Shown here: piece by piece, positions 3,185 through 54,704 of the stretch
Layout of the letters: each line of letters opens with the position of its first letter
Position numbering within the stretch: position 1 is the first letter of the stretch
From: Patescibacteria group bacterium
GTDB lineage: Bacteria; Patescibacteriota; Microgenomatia; Daviesbacterales; UBA10151
Assembly: GCA_023379125.1 (NCBI GenBank)
Contig: JAMCSY010000004.1
Coordinates: 58,479-122,478, forward strand
Length of the DNA stretch: 64,000 bases
Direction of reading: 5' to 3'
The notes under the pieces: generated by a model
Database searches by the model: none
Told to the model about the DNA's origin: nothing
What the model saw: the letters and a program-made list of their open reading frames with translations, nothing else
Translations under genes and position numbers: made by a program

Positions 3185-3233
3185 GTAGGATTTGAACCTA
3201 GAACCAAATGCGTATGACAAGTTGCATTTGTCC
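3185..3233 (-). pseudogene. Partial tRNA copy (anticodon arm and T arm only)
   Basis: Minus-strand ggacaaatgcaacttgtcatacgcatttggttctaggttcaaatcctac matches the 3' half of the neighbouring tRNA-Ile but lacks the D arm and acceptor stem. Confidence 0.55.
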
Positions 3234-3250
3234 TGAAAACTTTTTGATAG

Positions 3251-3322
3251 TGGAGCCGCTAGGATTTGAACCTAGAACCAAATGTGTATAAGACATTTGC
3301 TCTACCATTGAGCTACGGCTCC
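3251..3322 (-). tRNA. tRNA-Ile (anticodon UAU)
   Basis: Reverse complement reads GGAGCCG-TA-GCTC-AATGGTA-GAGC-A-AATGT-CTTATAC-ACATT-TGGTT-CTAGG-TTCAAAT-CCTAG-CGGCTCC-A; positions 34-36 are TAT; CCA is not encoded. Confidence 0.65.
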
Positions 3323-22983: not shown

Positions 22984-23730
22984 TCACTGCTTAATAAAAT
23001 TATTACTTTTTCCCAAGTTACACTCTTCGCATAGTGTTTGTAAATTCTCTATTGTGCTTTTACCTCCTTTTGAAAAAGGAATCATATGGTCAATGTGAAG
23101 TTTGGTACCTATATCTGTAGCTGGGCTTTTTCCACAAAATACACATCTAAATTGATCTCGCGACAACACTTTTAATCTTAGACTTAAAGATATTGTTCTT
23201 GAATCAGAGGAGCTCCGTACGTATTCTCTTTCCATACCCCCAACCTGTTTAACTTCTTTAGTAAGTTCACTTTTATTATTGTCATCTGAAACAGTTACGT
23301 TCCCTGATTTTGATTCGATAAATTTGAGACAAGCATTTTGCCAACTACCGAAATGTCGAGGATAAGTATCGTAGCTTATTTTATAATCACTCCCAAGCCA
23401 CTCATCTTTAGATGGTTGATGACCGATTTTTATCCATATGCGTTCCATCTCGCCGAAAAGTTCTTTATCTGAATAGCTAGTTCTTCTCGACGTAAGTTTA
23501 AAATCTATTCCTTTACTATGTAAATGTTTCACTAGGAAATTCATGGCATTTTGCCAAGAGCCAAATTCTCGATAAACGGTATAACTACTAATAGACGCTA
23601 CCTTATCAAAGTCGTCTTGCCTGAAGTCGGTATAATTATTATTCCTTGCAACAGTTTCGAGTTCGGAAATAATACGATCCCTTTTTATTTTGCTTCCCTG
23701 ATATTTCCTTAATTCAAATTTGAAACTCAT
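22984..23730 (-). CDS. HNH endonuclease with two N-terminal homing-endonuclease-associated repeats
   Basis: C-terminal CVFCGK...HIDHMIPFSKGG...NLQTLCEECN HNH motif; a duplicated ...FGSWQNA... repeat in the N-terminal half. Confidence 0.7.
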   Translation of the reverse strand: MSFKFELRKYQGSKIKRDRIISELETVARNNNYTDFRQDDFDKVASISSYTVYREFGSWQNAMNFLVKHLHSKGIDFKLTSRRTSYSDKELFGEMERIWIKIGHQPSKDEWLGSDYKISYDTYPRHFGSWQNACLKFIESKSGNVTVSDDNNKSELTKEVKQVGGMEREYVRSSSDSRTISLSLRLKVLSRDQFRCVFCGKSPATDIGTKLHIDHMIPFSKGGKSTIENLQTLCEECNLGKSNNFIKQ

Positions 23731-23747
23731 AATAAAATTATTCGATT

Positions 23748-24638
23748 TTAATAGTTTTGAGGCGACTCTACGTAACCATCAAAAATAGCGGCCTCGATCT
23801 CATGCTTCTTTGGGTTATCGTCATCGAACGCATCCTCAACCATCTTTAGATCTAATAACGATTCGTCTTTAACTTTTTCAAAAGCTCCGGCGCTTAAAAA
23901 ATTACCATAAAAGTTTCTCTGGGGATTTACTACATTTTGTTCAAGTTGAATATCGAAATTATTCTTTAAATATTCCGTGATTTTGATATACACTGCTTCC
24001 GCTAGGCCATTATAAAGCTGTTGATTCTGAATATTACCGTGAATTAGTTTATGGCGTAAGCCAGTGCCATAGAGATAGAGTTTATCGTATAGCTCATTGC
24101 CTAAAATTGCTTTTAAAGCATTTTGATCTGTTCTCACTCTACCGTTTGCTCTAATCTCTCCTGCAAATCCTTCAGCAGCTCCAAGAAGCATCGTTAATCG
24201 AGTGATCGCCGTCATAGAATTTGCAGCTTCCATAATATAAAAGAGACCGTTTTTGTTAGGAATAGATTGAAATTTGGGCAACTGTTCGATCTCTTGTGTG
24301 TCAAAATGAAGCCCTGTGTGGCTAACTCCCTTGACGTAGTATATATAAATAATATTTTCAGGATTATGAGTTTTTTTAAATATGAAATAACTATTTGCAG
24401 CTAAACGGAACGCGCATTGAGATACCACTGAAAACTTTTCTACCTCAGGAATTAGCTCTGTAATAAACTTATACCTTGCTTCACCGGCATTATTGGCGCT
24501 TATGATTTTCGACGCAACCCACGCATCACAATTCCACCATTCGTTAGTGTAGGAACTGAAGTTATATCCTCCTGAGTTAAATCCCTGAATAAGTTCGGCT
24601 ACAGTTGCAATTTTATAGCTGATAAGATAATCGTTCAT
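23748..24638 (-). CDS. Hypothetical protein, middle gene of a four-gene operon
   Basis: 296 aa; start/stop overlap with the upstream gene (ATGA at 24638). Confidence 0.5.
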   Translation of the reverse strand: MNDYLISYKIATVAELIQGFNSGGYNFSSYTNEWWNCDAWVASKIISANNAGEARYKFITELIPEVEKFSVVSQCAFRLAANSYFIFKKTHNPENIIYIYYVKGVSHTGLHFDTQEIEQLPKFQSIPNKNGLFYIMEAANSMTAITRLTMLLGAAEGFAGEIRANGRVRTDQNALKAILGNELYDKLYLYGTGLRHKLIHGNIQNQQLYNGLAEAVYIKITEYLKNNFDIQLEQNVVNPQRNFYGNFLSAGAFEKVKDESLLDLKMVEDAFDDDNPKKHEIEAAIFDGYVESPQNY

Positions 24639-26089
24639 TATTTTTGTTTTCGATACAACTCTTCGTTTACAATTACTCCGTCATCTGTTTTTTGAATGTA
24701 CGGTTCGTGATGAGAGTCAGGGACGAAACCAAATCCTGAAGCATAAATGTCTTGGATAATAGATCCAGCAATCTTTTCTGATTTAATTAAATCCTCGGTA
24801 TCATAAGGTCCAAACTGCCAATTATCCTTTTTCTGAGTACCGACATTTGAACGAATAAAATTATTTACGGTCAATACAAGCGAGTATTTGCCTCCATTTT
24901 TCGTTATAAATCCAATTTCCACATCATAAGATAATCGTTCTTTATCAATGATCCCAGCATTAATTAATGCCTTGATAAATAAAAAGAAACTATTCACATA
25001 TTCAACAAAAGCAAAGGCGTTTAATAATTTTTTACCCTCATTCTTCTCGTCGTCTTGAAGACCCCAATCAAGAAACTCTTGTATATTAGCTCCTGCAGCA
25101 ACAATCCCATTTTTCGTAACTTTAAGTATCTTCCTATTACCGTTCATAACCTCCCAACTGTTTCCCTCGGGTTGAGGATATTCACTGTAGGCAACACTTA
25201 AATCCCAACCCATATTCCTTAATATGGGCGGATTCTTCATATGGTGATATATCGATCCATCTGACTTATCCCAGAAGTTATTGAGAGTTACCCCTCTTGT
25301 GGGAGTAGCAACCATATAAAAGACATCTGCCTCGGCATCAAGTTTATTGATAAATTCCTCGACTATTCTTTTTTTTTGTTCTACGTCTGGAGGTTGAATC
25401 GCGGATTTAGTCTGAGATTCCTCTATCCGATCCGCTATTGCAGATAGTCGACTTATTTGATTTTCAACACTTACGTTAGTCATGGAACCCGATAAAACAC
25501 CGGCCACATATTCTTGAAACTTGTGGGCGTCGACTAGTTGAATGTTTTTTGCGCCATCTCGAGTATATATTCCATAAACCTGCCCTTTAAGTACAATCTC
25601 TTCTTTTGGATTCCATTGGTCTTGAGGAATGATGAAGGGGTATAAGCCCATATCTTTGGCGTTGGGTATCTTAATCCACAACACTTCTTTATCTTTACTC
25701 ACAAACCCCGATGCAATCTTTTCTCTGGGAAAACGAGGTACTAAACCATCAGACAGTATATCCAGCCACCGTTCAATATCTAAAGCTTTTGCTTCTATTC
25801 CACAAACAGATTTTACATACTCAACCTGTCTGCCTTTAACGGTATCGGGAACCAAACCAATTAGCAAATATCCACCCCCGCTATTGGAGATTGAGGAAAT
25901 ATCCTTTAATAGCTCTGTTCTGGATTTATATTTAGCCCAGTCTTTTCCTGATTTTTCTTCTTCGAAGTAGGGTTTTTCTCGAAACTCGAAATAAGAAGTT
26001 TCTAACGCACCAATAAAAAGGCTCGGGTCATTATTCTTAATTATTTCCTCTATCTCTTGGATAGATAGAAGCTTCGTTGTAACTTCCAT
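24638..26089 (-). CDS. Protein with an N-terminal AlbA_2/Schlafen-like (divergent-AAA) DNA-binding domain and no P-loop
   Basis: The N-terminal ~100 aa (IQEIEEII...ELLKDISSISNSGGGYLLIGLVPDT) match the PF04326 pattern; there is no Walker A anywhere in the 483 aa. Confidence 0.5.
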   Translation of the reverse strand: MEVTTKLLSIQEIEEIIKNNDPSLFIGALETSYFEFREKPYFEEEKSGKDWAKYKSRTELLKDISSISNSGGGYLLIGLVPDTVKGRQVEYVKSVCGIEAKALDIERWLDILSDGLVPRFPREKIASGFVSKDKEVLWIKIPNAKDMGLYPFIIPQDQWNPKEEIVLKGQVYGIYTRDGAKNIQLVDAHKFQEYVAGVLSGSMTNVSVENQISRLSAIADRIEESQTKSAIQPPDVEQKKRIVEEFINKLDAEADVFYMVATPTRGVTLNNFWDKSDGSIYHHMKNPPILRNMGWDLSVAYSEYPQPEGNSWEVMNGNRKILKVTKNGIVAAGANIQEFLDWGLQDDEKNEGKKLLNAFAFVEYVNSFFLFIKALINAGIIDKERLSYDVEIGFITKNGGKYSLVLTVNNFIRSNVGTQKKDNWQFGPYDTEDLIKSEKIAGSIIQDIYASGFGFVPDSHHEPYIQKTDDGVIVNEELYRKQK

Positions 26090-26097
26090 AGTTCATA

Positions 26098-26361
26098 TCA
26101 AAAGGGCAGAAGCTTCCCCGCACTCACGTTGAGAGCTTTAGCAAGCTTATAGAGATTAATAAGAGATGGGTTCCTTACTCCTCTCTCAATTTGCCCAATA
26201 TAGGTAAAGTGCATACCGGCTTTATCGGCTAGCTCTTCCTGGGTCCACTCCTTTTCTTGCCTAAGTTTCCTTAGGTTTTGGCCAAAGGCCTTACGTATAT
26301 CTATCATACCCAATAAAACTACAAAAATGAAGACGATGTATCCAGAGACGATAAGTCTCAA
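26098..26361 (-). CDS. XRE-family HTH transcriptional regulator (true start probably at the internal Met near 26307)
   Basis: LRKLRQEKEWTQEELADKAGMHFTYIGQIERGVRNPSLINLYKLAKALNVSAGKL; its stop is 8 bp from the downstream gene. Confidence 0.75.
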   Translation of the reverse strand: MRLIVSGYIVFIFVVLLGMIDIRKAFGQNLRKLRQEKEWTQEELADKAGMHFTYIGQIERGVRNPSLINLYKLAKALNVSAGKLLPF

Positions 26362-26396
26362 TTTTGTTATAATGGGTTATTGGAAGGAGGTGTTAT

Positions 26397-26681
26397 ATGA
26401 ACACACTATTAAAAACAAGATGCACTAAAGGTCATTTAGTTATATATGAGGATCGCGTAGCCATAGAGCTAAACGGTCTTGGTTTTAGCAATACGAACTC
26501 TCTTACTTATAAGCAAATAACCGGCGTTGAAGTTAAGACCACGATGGCTAAAATCCCAATTCTCTCTAAAGGAGCTGCTACCATAAAAGTGTATGCTACC
26601 GGCGATCAAAAATTGGAAGCCTCTTTTGTAACGTTAGATGATGCTAAAAGGGCTGAAGAACTTATAAGGCAGCGCATATAA
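26397..26681 (+). CDS. Hypothetical small protein, divergent from the XRE regulator
   Basis: 94-aa ORF with a GGAGGT RBS 8 bp upstream. Confidence 0.45.
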   Translation: MNTLLKTRCTKGHLVIYEDRVAIELNGLGFSNTNSLTYKQITGVEVKTTMAKIPILSKGAATIKVYATGDQKLEASFVTLDDAKRAEELIRQRI

Positions 26682-26695
26682 AGTGATACAACATG

Positions 26696-26711
26696 TGCGA
26701 CACGTGTCGCA
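26696..26711. promoter_or_regulatory. Perfect 16-bp palindrome (TGCGACACGTGTCGCA), likely an operator
   Basis: Perfect inverted repeat. The 8-bp palindrome ATCGCGAT at 26714-26721 follows, placed just before a sigma-70-like promoter. Confidence 0.5.
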
Positions 26712-26736
26712 TTTATCGCGATAATACGGTCTATTC

Positions 26737-26765
26737 TTGACATTACTTACTTTAATTGTTAATCT
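26737..26765 (+). promoter_or_regulatory. Sigma-70-type promoter
   Basis: TTGACA, a 17-bp spacer, then TAATCT. Confidence 0.45.
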
Positions 26766-26897
26766 GAATATATATTAGCCCAGTCGCCCAGTGATATAGG
26801 CGCATACGAGGCACAAACCGAATCTCATTAGTCTTTTGACTGTTTGAGAACGGATATCACATAAGTTGATATTCGTTTCTTGGCAGTCTTTTTTTAT

Positions 26898-26923
26898 GGC
26901 ACCCAAGAAGCGGGTGCCTTTTT
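26898..26923 (+). terminator. Rho-independent terminator-like hairpin
   Basis: GGCACCC-aagaagc-GGGTGCC followed by TTTTT; the next ATG is 3 bp after it. Confidence 0.5.
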
Positions 26924-26926
26924 AGT

Positions 26927-27139
26927 ATGGAAATGAAGACTAATACACAACTACCGATATCTAATAGCCGACTTAGGTTATCTCCTAAAGCTATATCCGA
27001 TTTTCAACAAGCTTTTTTTGAAGAATACGGCATAAGAATCTCCGAACAAGAAGCTAATACTTGCGGTTTAAGGCTCCTTAGATTAGTCAAACCTGTTTAT
27101 AAACCCATTCCAGTCAAAAGTTATGGAAAATCCAAGTAG
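26927..27139 (+). CDS. Hypothetical small protein
   Basis: 70-aa ORF. Confidence 0.35.
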   Translation: MEMKTNTQLPISNSRLRLSPKAISDFQQAFFEEYGIRISEQEANTCGLRLLRLVKPVYKPIPVKSYGKSK

Positions 27140-27365
27140 CACTTATCGAACAAAAGATCTGTATCTTGCTTCCTATCTATTTTCGGAAGGAATCGAGTTA
27201 TCGGGATCAGACAGAGTCGGATCAGTATATTGGTTCGTCTTTGCAAATAAAGTTGAATGCGAACGCCTAGCAAATCTCTACTGGACAGATCGAGCCAACT
27301 CGAAAATTAAGTCGTTTGTAGAAGCCATACGGTCTTTGAAGGACATTATTTTCGCTAAACCTTAA
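27123..27365 (+). CDS. Small phage/mobile-element-type protein; paralog of the 40823 ORF
   Basis: KDLYLASYLFSEGIELSGSDR...VYWFVF...LKDIIF aligns with DSYLLACYLLSESCQLVSIDR...MVFIFQ...LKAMIY at 40823-41068. Confidence 0.5.
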   Translation: MENPSSTYRTKDLYLASYLFSEGIELSGSDRVGSVYWFVFANKVECERLANLYWTDRANSKIKSFVEAIRSLKDIIFAKP

Positions 27366-27378
27366 TCAGACTAATGAG

Positions 27379-27825
27379 ATGAATATGGACAACATGGATA
27401 GAAACAAGCTAATTGAACGTTATAGACAGCGTTCAGAAGCAAATAAAGGAATTGAAAATCATTTTTTATGGACAAGGGTCAATTTTTCGACCGCAAGAGA
27501 TGGTCATATCCGAAAGCTTGGAGCAAACGCGTTTGCAGTCTTTATGGTAATTCGTACTTATATGGATAAAGAAAAAATCGCTTATCCGTCGCTTGCACGA
27601 ATAGCTTATCAGTCAAACTTAAGTGTTCGAACGGTAGAAAAAGCATTAAATAAGCTCGTCGACGAGGGTTGGATTAAAAAGGTAGGCAGAATGATCGATA
27701 AAGGTAAGTTCGGAAATACAAGATATCTAATACTCCAACATGATCTTATAAGAGGGACTGATGACCCGAGTTTTATGAGTAAGCCAATAGCAAATATTGC
27801 CAATGGTAATCAAGGCAACCAATAG
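27379..27825 (+). CDS. Winged-helix DNA-binding protein (replication-initiator/DnaD-like HTH)
   Basis: SLARIAYQSNLSVRTVEKALNKLVDEGWIKKV looks like a winged-helix motif. Confidence 0.4.
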   Translation: MNMDNMDRNKLIERYRQRSEANKGIENHFLWTRVNFSTARDGHIRKLGANAFAVFMVIRTYMDKEKIAYPSLARIAYQSNLSVRTVEKALNKLVDEGWIKKVGRMIDKGKFGNTRYLILQHDLIRGTDDPSFMSKPIANIANGNQGNQ

Positions 27826-27952: not shown

Positions 27953-28453
27953 ATGGCAAACGAACTAGTCAGAGAAAAAACGAAGCAAAAGTTTCTAGAT
28001 ATCCTCTCCGAAGAGGCAGGAGGTAATATCAGCGAGGCTTGTAAAGCAGTTGGTTTTAGCAGGCAAGCCATTAATGAATGGCGGTTAAACGACCATAGCT
28101 TTGATAATCGAGTACAACAGGCAATCTTAAACGGAAAAGAGGATCTAGCTGATTTAGCAGAAACACATCTACAAAAAAGAATTCGTAATGGGGACACAAC
28201 AGCAATTATTTTTACACTTAAATCTTTAAGACGAACATTTTTTGGGGAAAGAATTGAAGTCGAAACGGCAAAAAAGAGCAACAATGGTCGAGCTATTAGT
28301 TTAACTCCTGGCTTTTCAAAAACTCTGTTAGCAATCGGTTTAAAGCAAGCCCCGACTAACGTTCTTACCGAAGAGCAAAGAAAACAACTTAATGGATTAG
28401 TTGGAATTTTTGAAGATTATTATGATAATCTTAATGAAGACGATAAGTCTTAA
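27953..28453 (+). CDS. Terminase-small-subunit-like HTH protein
   Basis: GGNISEACKAVGFSRQAINEWRLNDHSFDNRVQQAI resembles terminase small subunit / Psq-type HTH proteins. Confidence 0.45.
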   Translation: MANELVREKTKQKFLDILSEEAGGNISEACKAVGFSRQAINEWRLNDHSFDNRVQQAILNGKEDLADLAETHLQKRIRNGDTTAIIFTLKSLRRTFFGERIEVETAKKSNNGRAISLTPGFSKTLLAIGLKQAPTNVLTEEQRKQLNGLVGIFEDYYDNLNEDDKS

Positions 28454-28459
28454 TTCAAT

Positions 28460-30289
28460 ATGAATAAATTCTTTATATATTGCCGAAAATCTTCAGAACA
28501 GGAAGATAGACAAGTTTTATCTTTACCTGGGCAAGCTCGAGAACTGCAAGAATACGCCAAAAGGGAAGGTTTGACGATTGTCGATACTTATCAAGAATCA
28601 AAAAGCGCACATTGGGCTGGCAGAATTGACTTTAATAACATGCTTATGAGGATTAGAAGCGGTGAAGGTAACGGAATAATAGTCTGGGACGAATCTAGAA
28701 TAGCTAGAAACGCTTTAGATAGCGGTACCGTAATCTATATGATCGATCTTCAGGAAATTGTAGAGATTAGGAAGCCTGGAAAAGTATATAAAAACACCCC
28801 TGACGATAAAAGTTGGTTAGCTATGTGTTTTATGATGTCTAAAAAGGAATCAGACGATAAAGGTGTGAGTGTAAAGAGAGGGCTAAAAACTAAAGCAGAA
28901 AAGGGTTATTTGCCTAGTGGAGCTAAAGCAGGTTATATGAACGATAAATATGCGGAAAAAGGTAATAAAACACTCTTAGTAGATCCCGTCAGATTCCCAC
29001 TTATAAAAAAGACGTGGGAAATGTTCTTAACTGGAATTTACAGCCCTCCACAAGTATTAAATAAGCTAAATGACGAATGGGGGTACAGAACTCCCCAACA
29101 TAAACGCATAGGTGGTAAACCAATGACAAGAAGTCAGATATATAAAACTTTAGCCGACCCTTTTTATTATGGAGTATTTGAATATCCCGAAGGTAGTGGA
29201 AATTGGTATCAGGGCAAACATGAACCCATGATAACCAAAGATGAGTTCGATAGAGCGCAAATGCTTCTTGGCAAAAAAGGTAGGCCAAGACCTAAAACCC
29301 ATGATTTTACCTATACAGGCTTACTTACTTGTGGCGAATGCGGAGCGATGATTACTGCTGAAGAAAAATATCAAGTCATATGTCCTGTTTGTAAATTAAA
29401 GTTTGCCTCTCTCAATAAAGATAGCTGTCCGGAGTGCAAAACAAGAATTGAAGATATGATTAAACCAACACTTCTTCACTACACTTATTACCACTGCACC
29501 AAACGTAAGAAAAAAACATGCTCACAGCTAGGCATTCGTCTCGAAAAAATGGAGGCTCAAATTGAGGGATTATTATCCCGAATCCAAATATCAGAGCGCT
29601 TCAAAAATTGGGCGATTAAGTATTTAAATGAACTGAACGTTATTGAAACTGAAGATAGAGACGTGATCTTAAAATCACAACAAGAAGCTTATGATGATGT
29701 GGTTAAACGAATTGATAACTTAATAAAGCTTAAGATCTCACCTCAAAACACCGATGGTTCATTACTCTCCGATGATGATTTTAAGAGACAAAAAGAGGAT
29801 TTAATGAAAGAAAAGTCTACGTTACAAGAAAAACTCGGAGACACAGACAATCGTATAAATAAGTGGGTAGAGTTATCAGAAAAAACGTTCAACTTTGCAT
29901 GCCATGCTCGCTATTGGTTTGCTAATGGCGACACAGAAACGAAAAAGCAGATATTAATGGGGATAGGTTCGAACCTAACGCTAAAAGATAAAACTGTGCT
30001 TGTAGACCTAGAAAAACCATTACAGTTTATAGAAGAAGCTAAAAACGAAGTACCGGAAATATCACCAATGTTCGAACCTACAAAAAAGGGCCTCACTGAG
30101 ACCCAATTAGGGGTTTTATATTCTCAAAATCCAACTCTGCTCCCTAGCCCTAAGGATATTATACTGCCCCAATTTGAGGCTATTTTAAAGGCATTTACTA
30201 ACCCTATTTGGATGGGAGAAATGCGCGTTCGATGGAATGAAATTAAGAAATTAAGCCGAGAACCTAATCCGGCACTTGTAGTAGCATGA
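28460..30289 (+). CDS. Large serine recombinase (integrase)
   Basis: N-terminal resolvase catalytic domain (IYCRKSSEQEDRQVLSLPGQ), recombinase domain, Cys4 zinc ribbon (CGECGAM...CPVCK...CPECK) and a C-terminal coiled coil. Confidence 0.85.
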   Translation: MNKFFIYCRKSSEQEDRQVLSLPGQARELQEYAKREGLTIVDTYQESKSAHWAGRIDFNNMLMRIRSGEGNGIIVWDESRIARNALDSGTVIYMIDLQEIVEIRKPGKVYKNTPDDKSWLAMCFMMSKKESDDKGVSVKRGLKTKAEKGYLPSGAKAGYMNDKYAEKGNKTLLVDPVRFPLIKKTWEMFLTGIYSPPQVLNKLNDEWGYRTPQHKRIGGKPMTRSQIYKTLADPFYYGVFEYPEGSGNWYQGKHEPMITKDEFDRAQMLLGKKGRPRPKTHDFTYTGLLTCGECGAMITAEEKYQVICPVCKLKFASLNKDSCPECKTRIEDMIKPTLLHYTYYHCTKRKKKTCSQLGIRLEKMEAQIEGLLSRIQISERFKNWAIKYLNELNVIETEDRDVILKSQQEAYDDVVKRIDNLIKLKISPQNTDGSLLSDDDFKRQKEDLMKEKSTLQEKLGDTDNRINKWVELSEKTFNFACHARYWFANGDTETKKQILMGIGSNLTLKDKTVLVDLEKPLQFIEEAKNEVPEISPMFEPTKKGLTETQLGVLYSQNPTLLPSPKDIILPQFEAILKAFTNPIWMGEMRVRWNEIKKLSREPNPALVVA

Positions 30290-39641: not shown

Positions 39642-39745
39642 CTCCCTTCGTCAAACATTAACTACGTCTTTTTATAAGGAGGCGGGCAACAAAAAGCTCC
39701 CCGCCAGCGATGGCTTTCGCCACCCACGCAGGTTTCCCCACGCGA

Positions 39746-39794
39746 CCGTGCAAGGTGCTCTGACGAGGAGCTTCCTACCTTGCACGGTATTTTT
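39746..39794 (+). terminator. Long GC-rich hairpin plus U-tract inside a locally GC-rich 150-bp non-coding patch
   Basis: CCGTGCAAGGT...ACCTTGCACGG is an 11-bp stem enclosing the GCTC-tgacgag-GAGC hairpin, followed by TATTTTT. Confidence 0.45.
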
Positions 39795-39912
39795 AGCCAT
39801 GCCTCTTGCGAGGTTTAGGCGTAAGTAAATTTGGAAACTTACCTCACGTTAATTATACATAATTCTACAGGCTCCGGTATAATCGGATAAGGTAATAAGG
39901 ATAAAAATAAGA

Positions 39913-54176: not shown

Positions 54177-54567
54177 GGGGACGTACAGATTCGACGTAAT
54201 TTGCACCTTAACAATCGCAAGCCGCTCAAGCAAACTTAAGCGCAAAATATGTTTGCAGAAATTATGCTAAGGATAAATTAGCATCCCGAGTGCAAGGCCT
54301 GATGGCCTTAATGGGTCAAGGGCAATTTGCCCCAGCCCTCGCATAAGGTATCTTAGGACAATCTCTACTTGGTGGAAGTTCTAGGGTATGTACAAAGCCA
54401 AGTTGCAAATTTCTTGAGTCAGATTCAACTTAAGATTTTCTAAGATAATTGAATCAAGTATTGACTTCCTGCTGATAGGTTACATTCAGTACTTATAAAT
54501 ATATCAGCTAAGCTTGTAGAAATTGTTTTGAAGTAAGTTCGCACAGGGGTCACTCCCCTCGTCTCCA
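54177..54567 (+). ncRNA. ssrA: tmRNA (ssrA)
   Basis: 5' GGGGACGUACAGAUUCGACG matches the Bacillus-type tmRNA 5' end; 3' ...AGGGGUCACUCCCCU-CGUCUCC-A pairs with the 5' GGGGACG; an internal tag ORF ends ...GQGQFAPALA-UAA near 54344; smpB is adjacent. Confidence 0.7.
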
Positions 54568-54704
54568 CACTACGTTGTTCATGGGTATTCACAACTACGC
54601 GTGGCAAGCCACTTTAATTACAACTCATACTCAGAAATTAATGAAGTAGTGTGTCCCGCGAAGCCTTGGCGAAGTGTGACAGTAAAACCTGTTAAAATAT
54701 TTAC

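Follow-up and report, generated by a model that had tools for sequence, protein, structure and literature searches.

An untranslated leader RNA as a putative gate ahead of the replication and recombination genes of a small integrative element in Patescibacteria

Introduction

Why should a promoter be followed, after some 150 untranslated nucleotides (nt), by a terminator that sits on the very threshold of the genes it would serve? The question is raised by a 64,000-nt stretch of DNA from a Patescibacteria group bacterium (GenBank contig JAMCSY010000004.1, positions 58,479 to 122,478; hereafter the window, in whose own numbering all coordinates are given) and, within it, by the interval 26362–26926. 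The best explanation of this interval is that it serves as control hub for a small integrative element, lodged in a Patescibacteria genome of the Microgenomates type and integrating by means of a serine recombinase. A XRE-family repressor gene, a variable cargo slot, a palindrome, a promoter (P2), a leader and a terminator are followed by an operon that encodes a small protein here called p70, a DUF5659 protein, an HTH_36 protein akin to replication initiators, a protein resembling terminase small subunits (TerS-like) and the recombinase. A first-pass annotation had recognized the control region of a mobile element with an XRE repressor, a view that is upheld. How Patescibacteria and the mobile elements they carry regulate their genes has hardly been explored, and these organisms cannot be grown alone; DUF5659 or this family of elements is mentioned in no paper found in the literature.

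The explanation favoured here, with a probability of roughly 0.55, is that the leader acts as a default-off attenuator and, in addition, as a mask over the start site ahead of the replication and recombination operon. The operon, comprising the genes for p70, DUF5659, HTH_36 (Rep-like), the TerS-like protein and the serine recombinase, would be served by its own promoter, P2, and held off by the leader. Most P2 transcripts would stop at the hairpin and its U-tract, thereby releasing a short RNA; in those that read through, a segment of the leader would pair around the start codon and block translation of p70. In the leader type present in the window, a 14-base-pair (bp) antiterminator would compete with the terminator, and a further hairpin would overlap the antiterminator. 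The gate might be opened by a factor that binds the palindrome, by an antitermination factor riding on polymerases from the rightward promoter P_R, by RNA processing or, in the window, by the alternative fold of the RNA itself. The architecture is well supported by comparison, and the function is a proposal.

A promoter, leader and terminator shared by related elements

Related loci were gathered with homologues of DUF5659, p70 and a 94-amino-acid (aa) protein encoded in the cargo slot of the window. About 15 distinct loci were recovered, all of them from Patescibacteria; the relatives of the element reside in metagenome-assembled genomes of Curtissbacteria, Levybacteria and Woesebacteria, and the 94-aa protein is identical to a Patescibacteria protein held at NCBI. 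The order XRE, variable slot, palindrome, promoter, leader, terminator, p70, DUF5659, HTH_36, recombinase is syntenic in L002, L003, L007, L008, L010, L011, L012, L017, L020, L024, L027, L028, L029 and L030. The succession that leads from the palindrome through promoter and leader to a hairpin with five to eight T residues and then the p70 ATG is found in 14 of the approximately 15 distinct loci, and also in L030. A subset (L005, L006 and L013–L015) harbours another gene where the leader would be, without the terminator.

P2 (26737–26765, plus strand) was delineated by comparison. It consists of a −35 box, TTGACA (26737–26742), a 17-bp spacer, the TG of an extended −10 (26757–26758) and a −10 box, TAATCT (26760–26765), which matches TATAAT at three of six positions only and for this reason escaped a scan for consensus promoters. 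In the relatives a TTGACA-like −35 is separated by 17 bp (18–19 bp in two loci) from a −10 of the form TAnTAT, often preceded by TGn. In 14 distinct loci both hexamers and the distance between them are maintained while the intervening sequence is free to vary, as is characteristic of a real promoter. The "good sigma-70 promoter" of the first-pass annotation therefore stands on comparative grounds, and not on the quality of match claimed for it.

Downstream of P2 lies the untranslated structured leader (26772–26926, plus strand; the 5′ end is predicted), whose slot is filled by leaders in all the related loci, the subset just mentioned aside. In these loci the leaders measure 100–230 nt and contain no conserved open reading frame (ORF). 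When the transcript is folded, as the first-pass annotation had proposed, the window leader proves far more stable than its shuffled counterparts, with a minimum free energy of −51.6 kcal/mol and a z-score of −5.2. The leader ends in a predicted intrinsic terminator, picked up by a terminator scan (26898–26923, plus strand), in which the hairpin GGCACCC-AAGAAGC-GGGTGCC (26898–26918; 7 bp, six of them G–C; −13.1 kcal/mol) is followed by T5 (26919–26923). The strong GC hairpin and U5 tract reported to end 3 bp before the ATG at 26927 are thus present as described, and on the minus strand no T-run follows the hairpin.

In each of the 14 distinct loci, and in L030 too, a hairpin with five to eight T residues precedes the p70 ATG, at a distance of 3–32 nt. 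The terminator stems are unrelated in sequence (GGCACCC, ACCGCU, CCCGC, CUCGC, GACUGCUAG, AGCAC..., AGCCAUU) yet always paired. With arms that are 41% identical between leader types, it is the structure and not the sequence that is conserved in this position. Within a type, by contrast, the leader is as conserved as the adjacent coding DNA or more so (0.82 versus 0.69 for L011/L024; 0.85 versus 0.71 for L020/L024), and the 5′ hairpins of the leaders display compensatory changes. Between types the leaders are unalignable and share no common fold: L011 and L012 are 10% identical in the leader and 79–82% in p70 and DUF5659, and the window and L002 are 25% identical in the leader and 62–66% in the flanking genes. 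The limits of these leader cassettes coincide with the predicted transcription start and with the p70 ATG.

The promoter-to-terminator unit had been described as devoid of an ORF. This is correct as far as conserved ORFs are concerned, but the window does contain an upstream ORF of nine codons (MAPKKRVPF, 26896–26925), which spans the terminator and leaves 1 nt between its stop codon and the p70 ATG. A terminator-spanning upstream ORF is also encountered in L017, and not in L012 or the other loci. A leader peptide or upstream ORF, in the manner of pyrBI attenuation, was rejected as the mechanism of the family since the ORF is not conserved, even within a leader type.

Predicted competing folds in the window leader

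The window leader is predicted to form a second helix that excludes the terminator. This antiterminator (26870–26916, plus strand) pairs 26870–26883 with 26903–26916 over 14 bp, including four G–U pairs; its duplex energy is −21.7 kcal/mol compared with −13.1 kcal/mol for the terminator hairpin, and it surpasses shuffled sequences at p=0.01–0.015. In the predicted equilibrium ensemble the terminator pairs have a probability of ∼0.001 and the core pairs of the antiterminator one of ∼0.99. Further upstream, the arms of hairpin P3 (26849–26877, plus strand; arms 26849–26859 and 26867–26877) include a 3′ arm that overlaps the antiterminator strand, and P3 could act as an anti-antiterminator. For transcripts ending between 26890 and 26897, the predicted minimum-free-energy fold keeps the antiterminator strand in a longer version of P3. 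As P3 overlaps the antiterminator, which in turn competes with the terminator, the window displays the three-part layout of a classical attenuator.

Three overlapping predicted helices are what terminator/antiterminator attenuators and riboswitch platforms have in common with the window leader, and they invite a different explanation, namely that the leader senses a metabolite or a tRNA, whose binding to an aptamer selects the terminator or the antiterminator. The unusual stability of the window leader would suit such a device, as would the leaders of one type (type a), in whose 5′ hairpin the internal loops are conserved and compensatory changes occur. However, a common ligand would need a common aptamer, whereas the leader types lack a common sequence or fold; neither a conserved aptamer nor a conserved leader peptide is apparent, and the alternative helix is absent from the 13 other loci. 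Searches against Rfam returned nothing at the gathering threshold for the window region, where lowering the bar to E≤10 yielded two chance-level matches only, and nothing at the gathering threshold upstream of p70 in 13 related loci. The leader belongs to no RNA family described in Rfam and, for want of a conserved aptamer, is not a riboswitch; a ligand-sensing leader is very improbable.

The first-pass annotation had offered a small regulatory RNA or an attenuation leader as interpretations of the unit. Its position and architecture hold in approximately 15 related elements, and alternative terminator and antiterminator folds are predicted in the window; a switch operated by RNA alone does not hold as a family-wide property.

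Predicted pairing of the leader with the start of p70

The first gene of the operon, p70 (26927–27139, plus strand), belongs to a family that is conserved 3′ of every leader. In the window, a predicted long-range helix, P1, has its 5′ strand at 26803–26814 (plus strand), where CAUAC faces GUAUG (26925–26929, including the start codon) and GAGGCAC faces GUGCCUU (26914–26920). Across the family, the stretch from the U-tract to the first p70 codons finds in the leader a complement stronger than in shuffled sequences in 13 of 14 distinct loci (individual p 0.000–0.063), and with one representative for each of eight leader types the combined Fisher p is ∼2e-7. The helices differ by type: CGCAAUA/UAUUGCG in type a and, in other types, UUUGCAAU/AUUGCAAA, GUUAGCAAUAA/UUAUUGCUAAC, UUGCGCGAU/AUCGCGCAA, CCAUAAGG/CCUUAUGG and AUCCAUA/UAUGGAU; UUAGCAAUAA/UUAUUGCUAA is another such helix that changes with the type. 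A further pairing, between the leader and codons 4–7 of p70, was considered and set aside as not general, as it is significant in L011, L020 and L029 and in the window (ATTAGTCTT/AAGACTAAT) has a z-score of 0.24.

Among the long ORFs of the window, 81% lack a Shine-Dalgarno sequence. The absence of this signal at p70 is consequently ordinary and was discarded as a special feature; accessibility of the start site, on the other hand, should matter for initiation in such a host, and a helix over the p70 start would act as a mask.

The same pairing can be read in another way. The partner at the p70 start lies beyond the U-tract, so that a terminated RNA carries its anti-start segment unpaired and can pair in trans. 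The terminated leader of ∼150 nt would then be the product: an immunity or incompatibility RNA that silences p70, and perhaps other genes of the operon, in a resident or incoming element of the same type. The leaders behave as discrete cassettes, swapped exactly between transcription start and p70 ATG and conserved within a type, as expected of specificity determinants, and the pair formed by anti-start and start differs from one leader type to the next. The window contains additional complements to downstream starts. Leader positions 26822–26834 are a perfect 13-nt complement of 27368–27380 (−11 to +2 of the HTH_36 start), a match for which shuffling gives p ∼0.001 for at least 13 nt at a start codon; 26833–26842 complement 10 nt (27111–27120) that end 3 nt before the DUF5659 start; and an 11-nt low-complexity complement precedes the TerS-like start. 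These downstream matches are not reproduced in the other loci, with the exception of a low-complexity pair of A-run and U-tract, and are left unexplained for this reason. Duplex scans over the operons disclosed no consistent target in trans, ordinary mosaic recombination can also replace cassettes, and accumulation of the short RNA is a supposition. A trans-acting RNA of this kind is compatible with control in cis and does not exclude it, but as the principal function of the leader it is tentative and rather unlikely.

The closest parallels for such an RNA are P4 CI and the c4 RNAs of P1 and P7 (Rfam C4, RF01695). Like them, it would be a type-specific, sense-strand RNA derived from the leader of the very operon under its control, in a small integrative, satellite-like element, and it is complementary to downstream starts, that of p70 in 13 of 14 loci and, over 13 nt, that of HTH_36 in the window. 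Unlike them, it has no match to RF01695 at E≤10, its 3′ end would be set by an intrinsic terminator and not by processing, and its action in trans is hypothetical. A bolder version of the idea supposes a hypervariable, type-specific immunity-RNA cassette that arose independently of P4 CI and P1 c4 and whose alleles are traded precisely at two boundaries, the start of transcription and the first start codon. This version is unlikely; if true, mobile elements of the candidate phyla radiation would here provide their first described case of RNA-based immunity, in hosts that mostly dispense with Shine-Dalgarno initiation.

Weighing the attenuator and mask

Several observations weigh against a leader that both attenuates transcription and masks the start. 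The 5′ end of the leader, the efficiency of termination and the masking are all predictions. In the window, helix P1 is weak and not individually significant (p=0.12), and the equilibrium fold is the antiterminator and not the terminator, so that the window leader may behave differently from those of the other loci. An antiterminator beyond chance is a property of the window only: it is found in none of the other 13 loci, where the terminator dominates the predicted ensemble, and an RNA antiterminator was rejected as a feature of the family. As 13 of 14 loci consequently offer no visible route to opening, an outside factor must be invoked for them. No motif is common to all leader types, with the result that neither a common ligand nor a common protein site can be named. 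Finally, with two to five sequences for each leader type, the covariation is thin.

The palindrome and the search for an opening factor

If a factor from outside is needed, the palindrome upstream of P2 is the place where it might act. The 16-bp perfect palindrome pointed out in the first-pass annotation, TGCGACACGTGTCGCA, is indeed present at 26696–26711 and conforms to a family pattern, TGCG[AC]C-N4-G[TG]CGCA, which matches once in the 64-kb window against 0.08 matches expected by chance and occurs in 22 distinct instances in the related loci. Between leader types its arms are 83% identical and its central 4 nt 45%, compared with the 41% of the leader-terminator arms. In most loci its 3′ end lies 25–26 bp upstream of the −35 box. 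L029 retains it without any upstream gene, and in L010 and L011 the half-sites carry a C–U mismatch that would leave a weak hairpin (−2.8 kcal/mol). L005, L006, L011, L012, L014, L015, L017, L020 and L024 have a second copy in the interval that separates the DUF5659 stop from the HTH_36 start (at about 3228–3259 or 2943–2958), and in L030 two copies (2794 and 3344) flank an inserted GrpB gene on the minus strand.

Conserved arms, the weak hairpin of L010 and L011 and retention in L029 are together better explained by a protein that reads the half-sites on DNA than by a terminator acting through structure alone. The palindrome is probably an operator, the site of a DNA-binding protein encoded by the element. 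The HTH_36 protein is the obvious candidate for its binder. The XRE protein, put forward for a binding test in the first-pass annotation, is not supported as such and is an unlikely binder, because the repeat associated with XRE is a different motif, AGACGAT[AG][AT]GT[CA]T.

A short sequence described alongside the main palindrome, ATCGCGAT, is found at its reported site (26715–26722) but is not conserved as a palindrome in relatives. Short palindromes of the TCGA type (ATCGCGAT, ATCGAT, GTCGAC) do follow the main palindrome by 3–14 nt in the window, L011, L020, L024 and L029, at offsets that vary.

A putative operator close to a promoter and ahead of a terminator suggests that processive antitermination might be at work, dependent on a factor as in lambda N/nut or Q/PR′-tR′. 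Here P2 transcripts would always terminate; resistance of the polymerase to the terminator would come from a protein that reads the palindrome, either on DNA near the promoter or, in transcripts from P_R, folded as an RNA hairpin, and the operon would be expressed only after inactivation of the XRE repressor. The palindrome does lie between P_R and the terminator, as nutR does between cro and tR1, its arms are conserved while the surroundings drift, its distance from the −35 box is fixed in most loci, a second copy is present inside the operon in many relatives, and most leaders, being without an RNA antiterminator, need a factor. Yet none of the ten neighbouring proteins belongs to an N, Q or other antiterminator family by Pfam and PHROG, and the stretch from P_R to the terminator is devoid of conserved genes, which would put the gene for the factor on the far side of the very block it relieves. 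Moreover, the weak hairpin of L010 and L011 runs contrary to an RNA-hairpin signal, and P_R looks degenerate in L029. Processive antitermination of this kind is improbable.

The simplest explanation dispenses with a regulated gate: the palindrome would be a terminator, possibly bidirectional, for the cargo genes, P2 an ordinary promoter, and the hairpin before p70 a leaky terminator or a 5′ structure that stabilizes the mRNA. The flanks of the palindrome, usually an A-run and a T-run, and its location 2–28 nt after the upstream stop codon keep alive its reading as a terminator; one L030 copy sits between two convergent genes, and no trigger for a gate is visible. On the other side of the ledger stand the palindrome kept in L029 where there is no upstream gene to terminate, its persistence in L010 and L011 despite the mismatch, and arms far more conserved than those of true terminators in the same loci. 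A terminator abutting the start, a masking helix and purifying selection on the leader, recurring over eight leader types, are hard to explain without a function. The absence of any gate is quite improbable. If the leader were only a leaky terminator, the finding would be an ordinary one.

The XRE repressor and its probable operators

The XRE-family repressor gene (26098–26307, minus strand; Pfam HTH_3, E=1.9e-20) encodes 69 aa. Its homologues are 72–78% identical, always 69 aa in length and in the same position in all related elements. The 35-bp divergent gap of the first-pass annotation is an error that stems from the ORF list, in which a TTG at 26361 served as start; all homologues begin at the ATG equivalent to 26307, and the gap therefore measures 89 bp. 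It accommodates two copies of the repeat AGACGAT[AG][AT]GT[CA]T, a rightward promoter with an extended −10 and a strong Shine-Dalgarno sequence for the gene of the 94-aa protein.

The two repeat copies, AGACGATGTATCC (26331–26343) and AGACGATAAGTCT (26346–26358), lie just upstream of P_R and constitute a motif conserved in relatives, retained at this position in L002, L005, L006, L010, L011, L012, L015, L017, L020, L029 and L030; two or three conserved copies surround the rightward −10 in related loci. P_R itself (extended −10 TGtTATAAT, 26365–26373, plus strand), read from the sequence, drives the gene of the 94-aa protein, and a TATAAT-like box is kept at its position in most relatives. Judged by their position, the repeats are probably the operators of the XRE repressor. 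An extra exact copy of AGACGATAAGTCT (28438–28450, plus strand) lies 9 nt before the recombinase ATG, and L002, L010, L011, L012, L015, L017 and L024 keep a repeat 20–40 nt ahead of the recombinase start. This arrangement suggests a repressor that extends its control to the integrase or forms a DNA loop; XRE and its operators would govern the rightward promoter and probably the recombinase gene as well.

The divergent pair had been likened to XRE and Cro. The XRE half of the comparison is sound; the Cro-like half is not, as the 94-aa protein folds like a bacterial PH domain, and relatives carry another gene in its place or none. Its gene (26397–26681, plus strand) is the occupant of a cargo slot and lies outside the switch. 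Pfam bPH_2 is matched by 19 of its 31 homologues, some of which carry a C-terminal SHOCT fusion, and no helix-turn-helix match emerged from Pfam and PHROG scans. The AlphaFold (AF2) model built from 31 sequences (predicted local distance difference test score, pLDDT, of 90) is a sandwich of seven strands with a C-terminal helix, whose best matches in the PDB are the bacterial PH domains 3dcx and 3hsa. Among relatives, L002 has an unrelated 186-aa protein in the slot, L011 and L017 have another family, L030 has an additional GrpB gene on the opposite strand and L029 has nothing. The 94-aa gene has a near-perfect Shine-Dalgarno sequence, GGAAGGAGGTG (26382–26392), unlike most ORFs of the window.

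Lacking a Cro-like partner, the locus is not a CI/Cro switch. It shares with such switches, and with the Stl-type regions of Staphylococcus aureus pathogenicity islands (SaPI) and phage-inducible chromosomal islands (PICI), a divergent XRE gene, repeated candidate operators at the rightward promoter and proximity to replication, small-terminase-like and integrase genes. It differs in that the rightward gene is PH-domain cargo, that the operon has its own promoter and a putative RNA gate, and that an extra copy of the candidate operator precedes the integrase. Candidate counterparts of the genes that characterize PICI-like satellites are those for the serine recombinase, XRE, the HTH_36/Rep-like protein and the TerS-like protein (phrog_4044).

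Comparison with other leaders

At the lambda late promoter PR′, a strong promoter gives rise to the 194-nt untranslated 6S RNA and is followed by the terminator tR′ before a block of element genes; transcription stops by default. The element shares this succession of promoter, predicted short untranslated transcript and terminator directly upstream of element genes. No Q-like protein or Q-binding element was found by Pfam and PHROG, the genes are for replication and recombination and not late genes, the leader is predicted to mask the start codon as well, and the host is a Patescibacterium. In the lambda pL-nutL-N region a long structured untranslated leader occludes the start of the first gene, and a conserved hairpin-forming sequence lies upstream. 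The element would resemble it in both respects, with the difference that no boxA- or boxB-like motif and no N-like protein were identified. Attenuation of rep genes by countertranscripts, as in pT181, pIP501 and pAMbeta1, likewise places a terminator just before a replication module and exerts control through leader structure; the present loci showed no conserved antisense promoter on their minus strand, and their complementary RNA is on the sense strand.

The locus family is a compact control module defined by comparison, which can be rebuilt in a heterologous host. A type-specific RNA gate acting in cis or in trans, if true, would show how elements silence their replication and excision genes and how a start site is controlled in a host largely without Shine-Dalgarno sequences, and it would add an RNA family absent from Rfam.

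Neighbouring genes and further observations

The start of the DUF5659 gene (27123–27365, plus strand; Pfam PF18903, E=6e-10) overlaps the end of p70. It is followed on the same strand by the genes for the HTH_36, replication-initiator-like protein (27379–27825; Pfam HTH_36, 1.1e-12; PHROG replication-initiation families), the TerS-like helix-turn-helix protein (27953–28453; phrog_4044, terminase small subunit, 1.8e-13) and the 609-aa large serine recombinase, or integrase (28460–30289; Pfam Resolvase and Recombinase; phrog_95 integrase, 3.7e-60). The TerS-like gene is found in some relatives only. The AF2 model of p70 is a predicted two-helix hairpin, for which a fold search of the PDB gave no informative match, and sequence searches of the PDB with the 94-aa protein, DUF5659 and p70 returned nothing significant.

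The reach of the family was also probed in viral collections. A search for distant DNA similarity with 26300–27400 matched no phage record. In IMG/VR, a single DUF5659 protein retrieved nothing and a DUF5659 alignment only two loci, 32% identical and in a different context. A scan of IMG/VR for the palindrome combined with CTTGACA produced 20 loci, which were judged chance matches because none of them encodes any element protein.

To the left of XRE (window 22984–26089, minus strand) are encoded a 483-aa Schlafen/AlbA_2 protein, a 296-aa protein and an HNH nuclease with PtuB- and restriction-like matches in PADLOC. The genes in this position differ by element; among L030, L041 and L024 they encode YaaC, a 1365-aa AAA_22 protein or a 491-aa protein. 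The region looks like variable cargo, possibly related to defence.

Group I introns or tRNA genes lie directly 3′ of the recombinase in L011 (5534–5732, minus strand), L012 (5553–5785, minus strand), L017 (5499–5570), L007 (3766–3837) and L015 (5773–5844). This arrangement suggests that tRNA genes, intron-containing ones among them, serve the relatives as integration sites. The recombinase of the window has no tRNA gene next to it. Elsewhere the window contains nine tRNA genes, including tRNA-Ile(tat), a LOOT RNA (RF03000, 86 bits; 39709–39821, minus strand) and a tmRNA (54177–54570, plus strand). Many element genes in the related loci start with ATGGATATGGA or ATGGAAAT, often with tandem ATGs, for example at 3263 in L012, 3249 in L017 and 2040 in L005.

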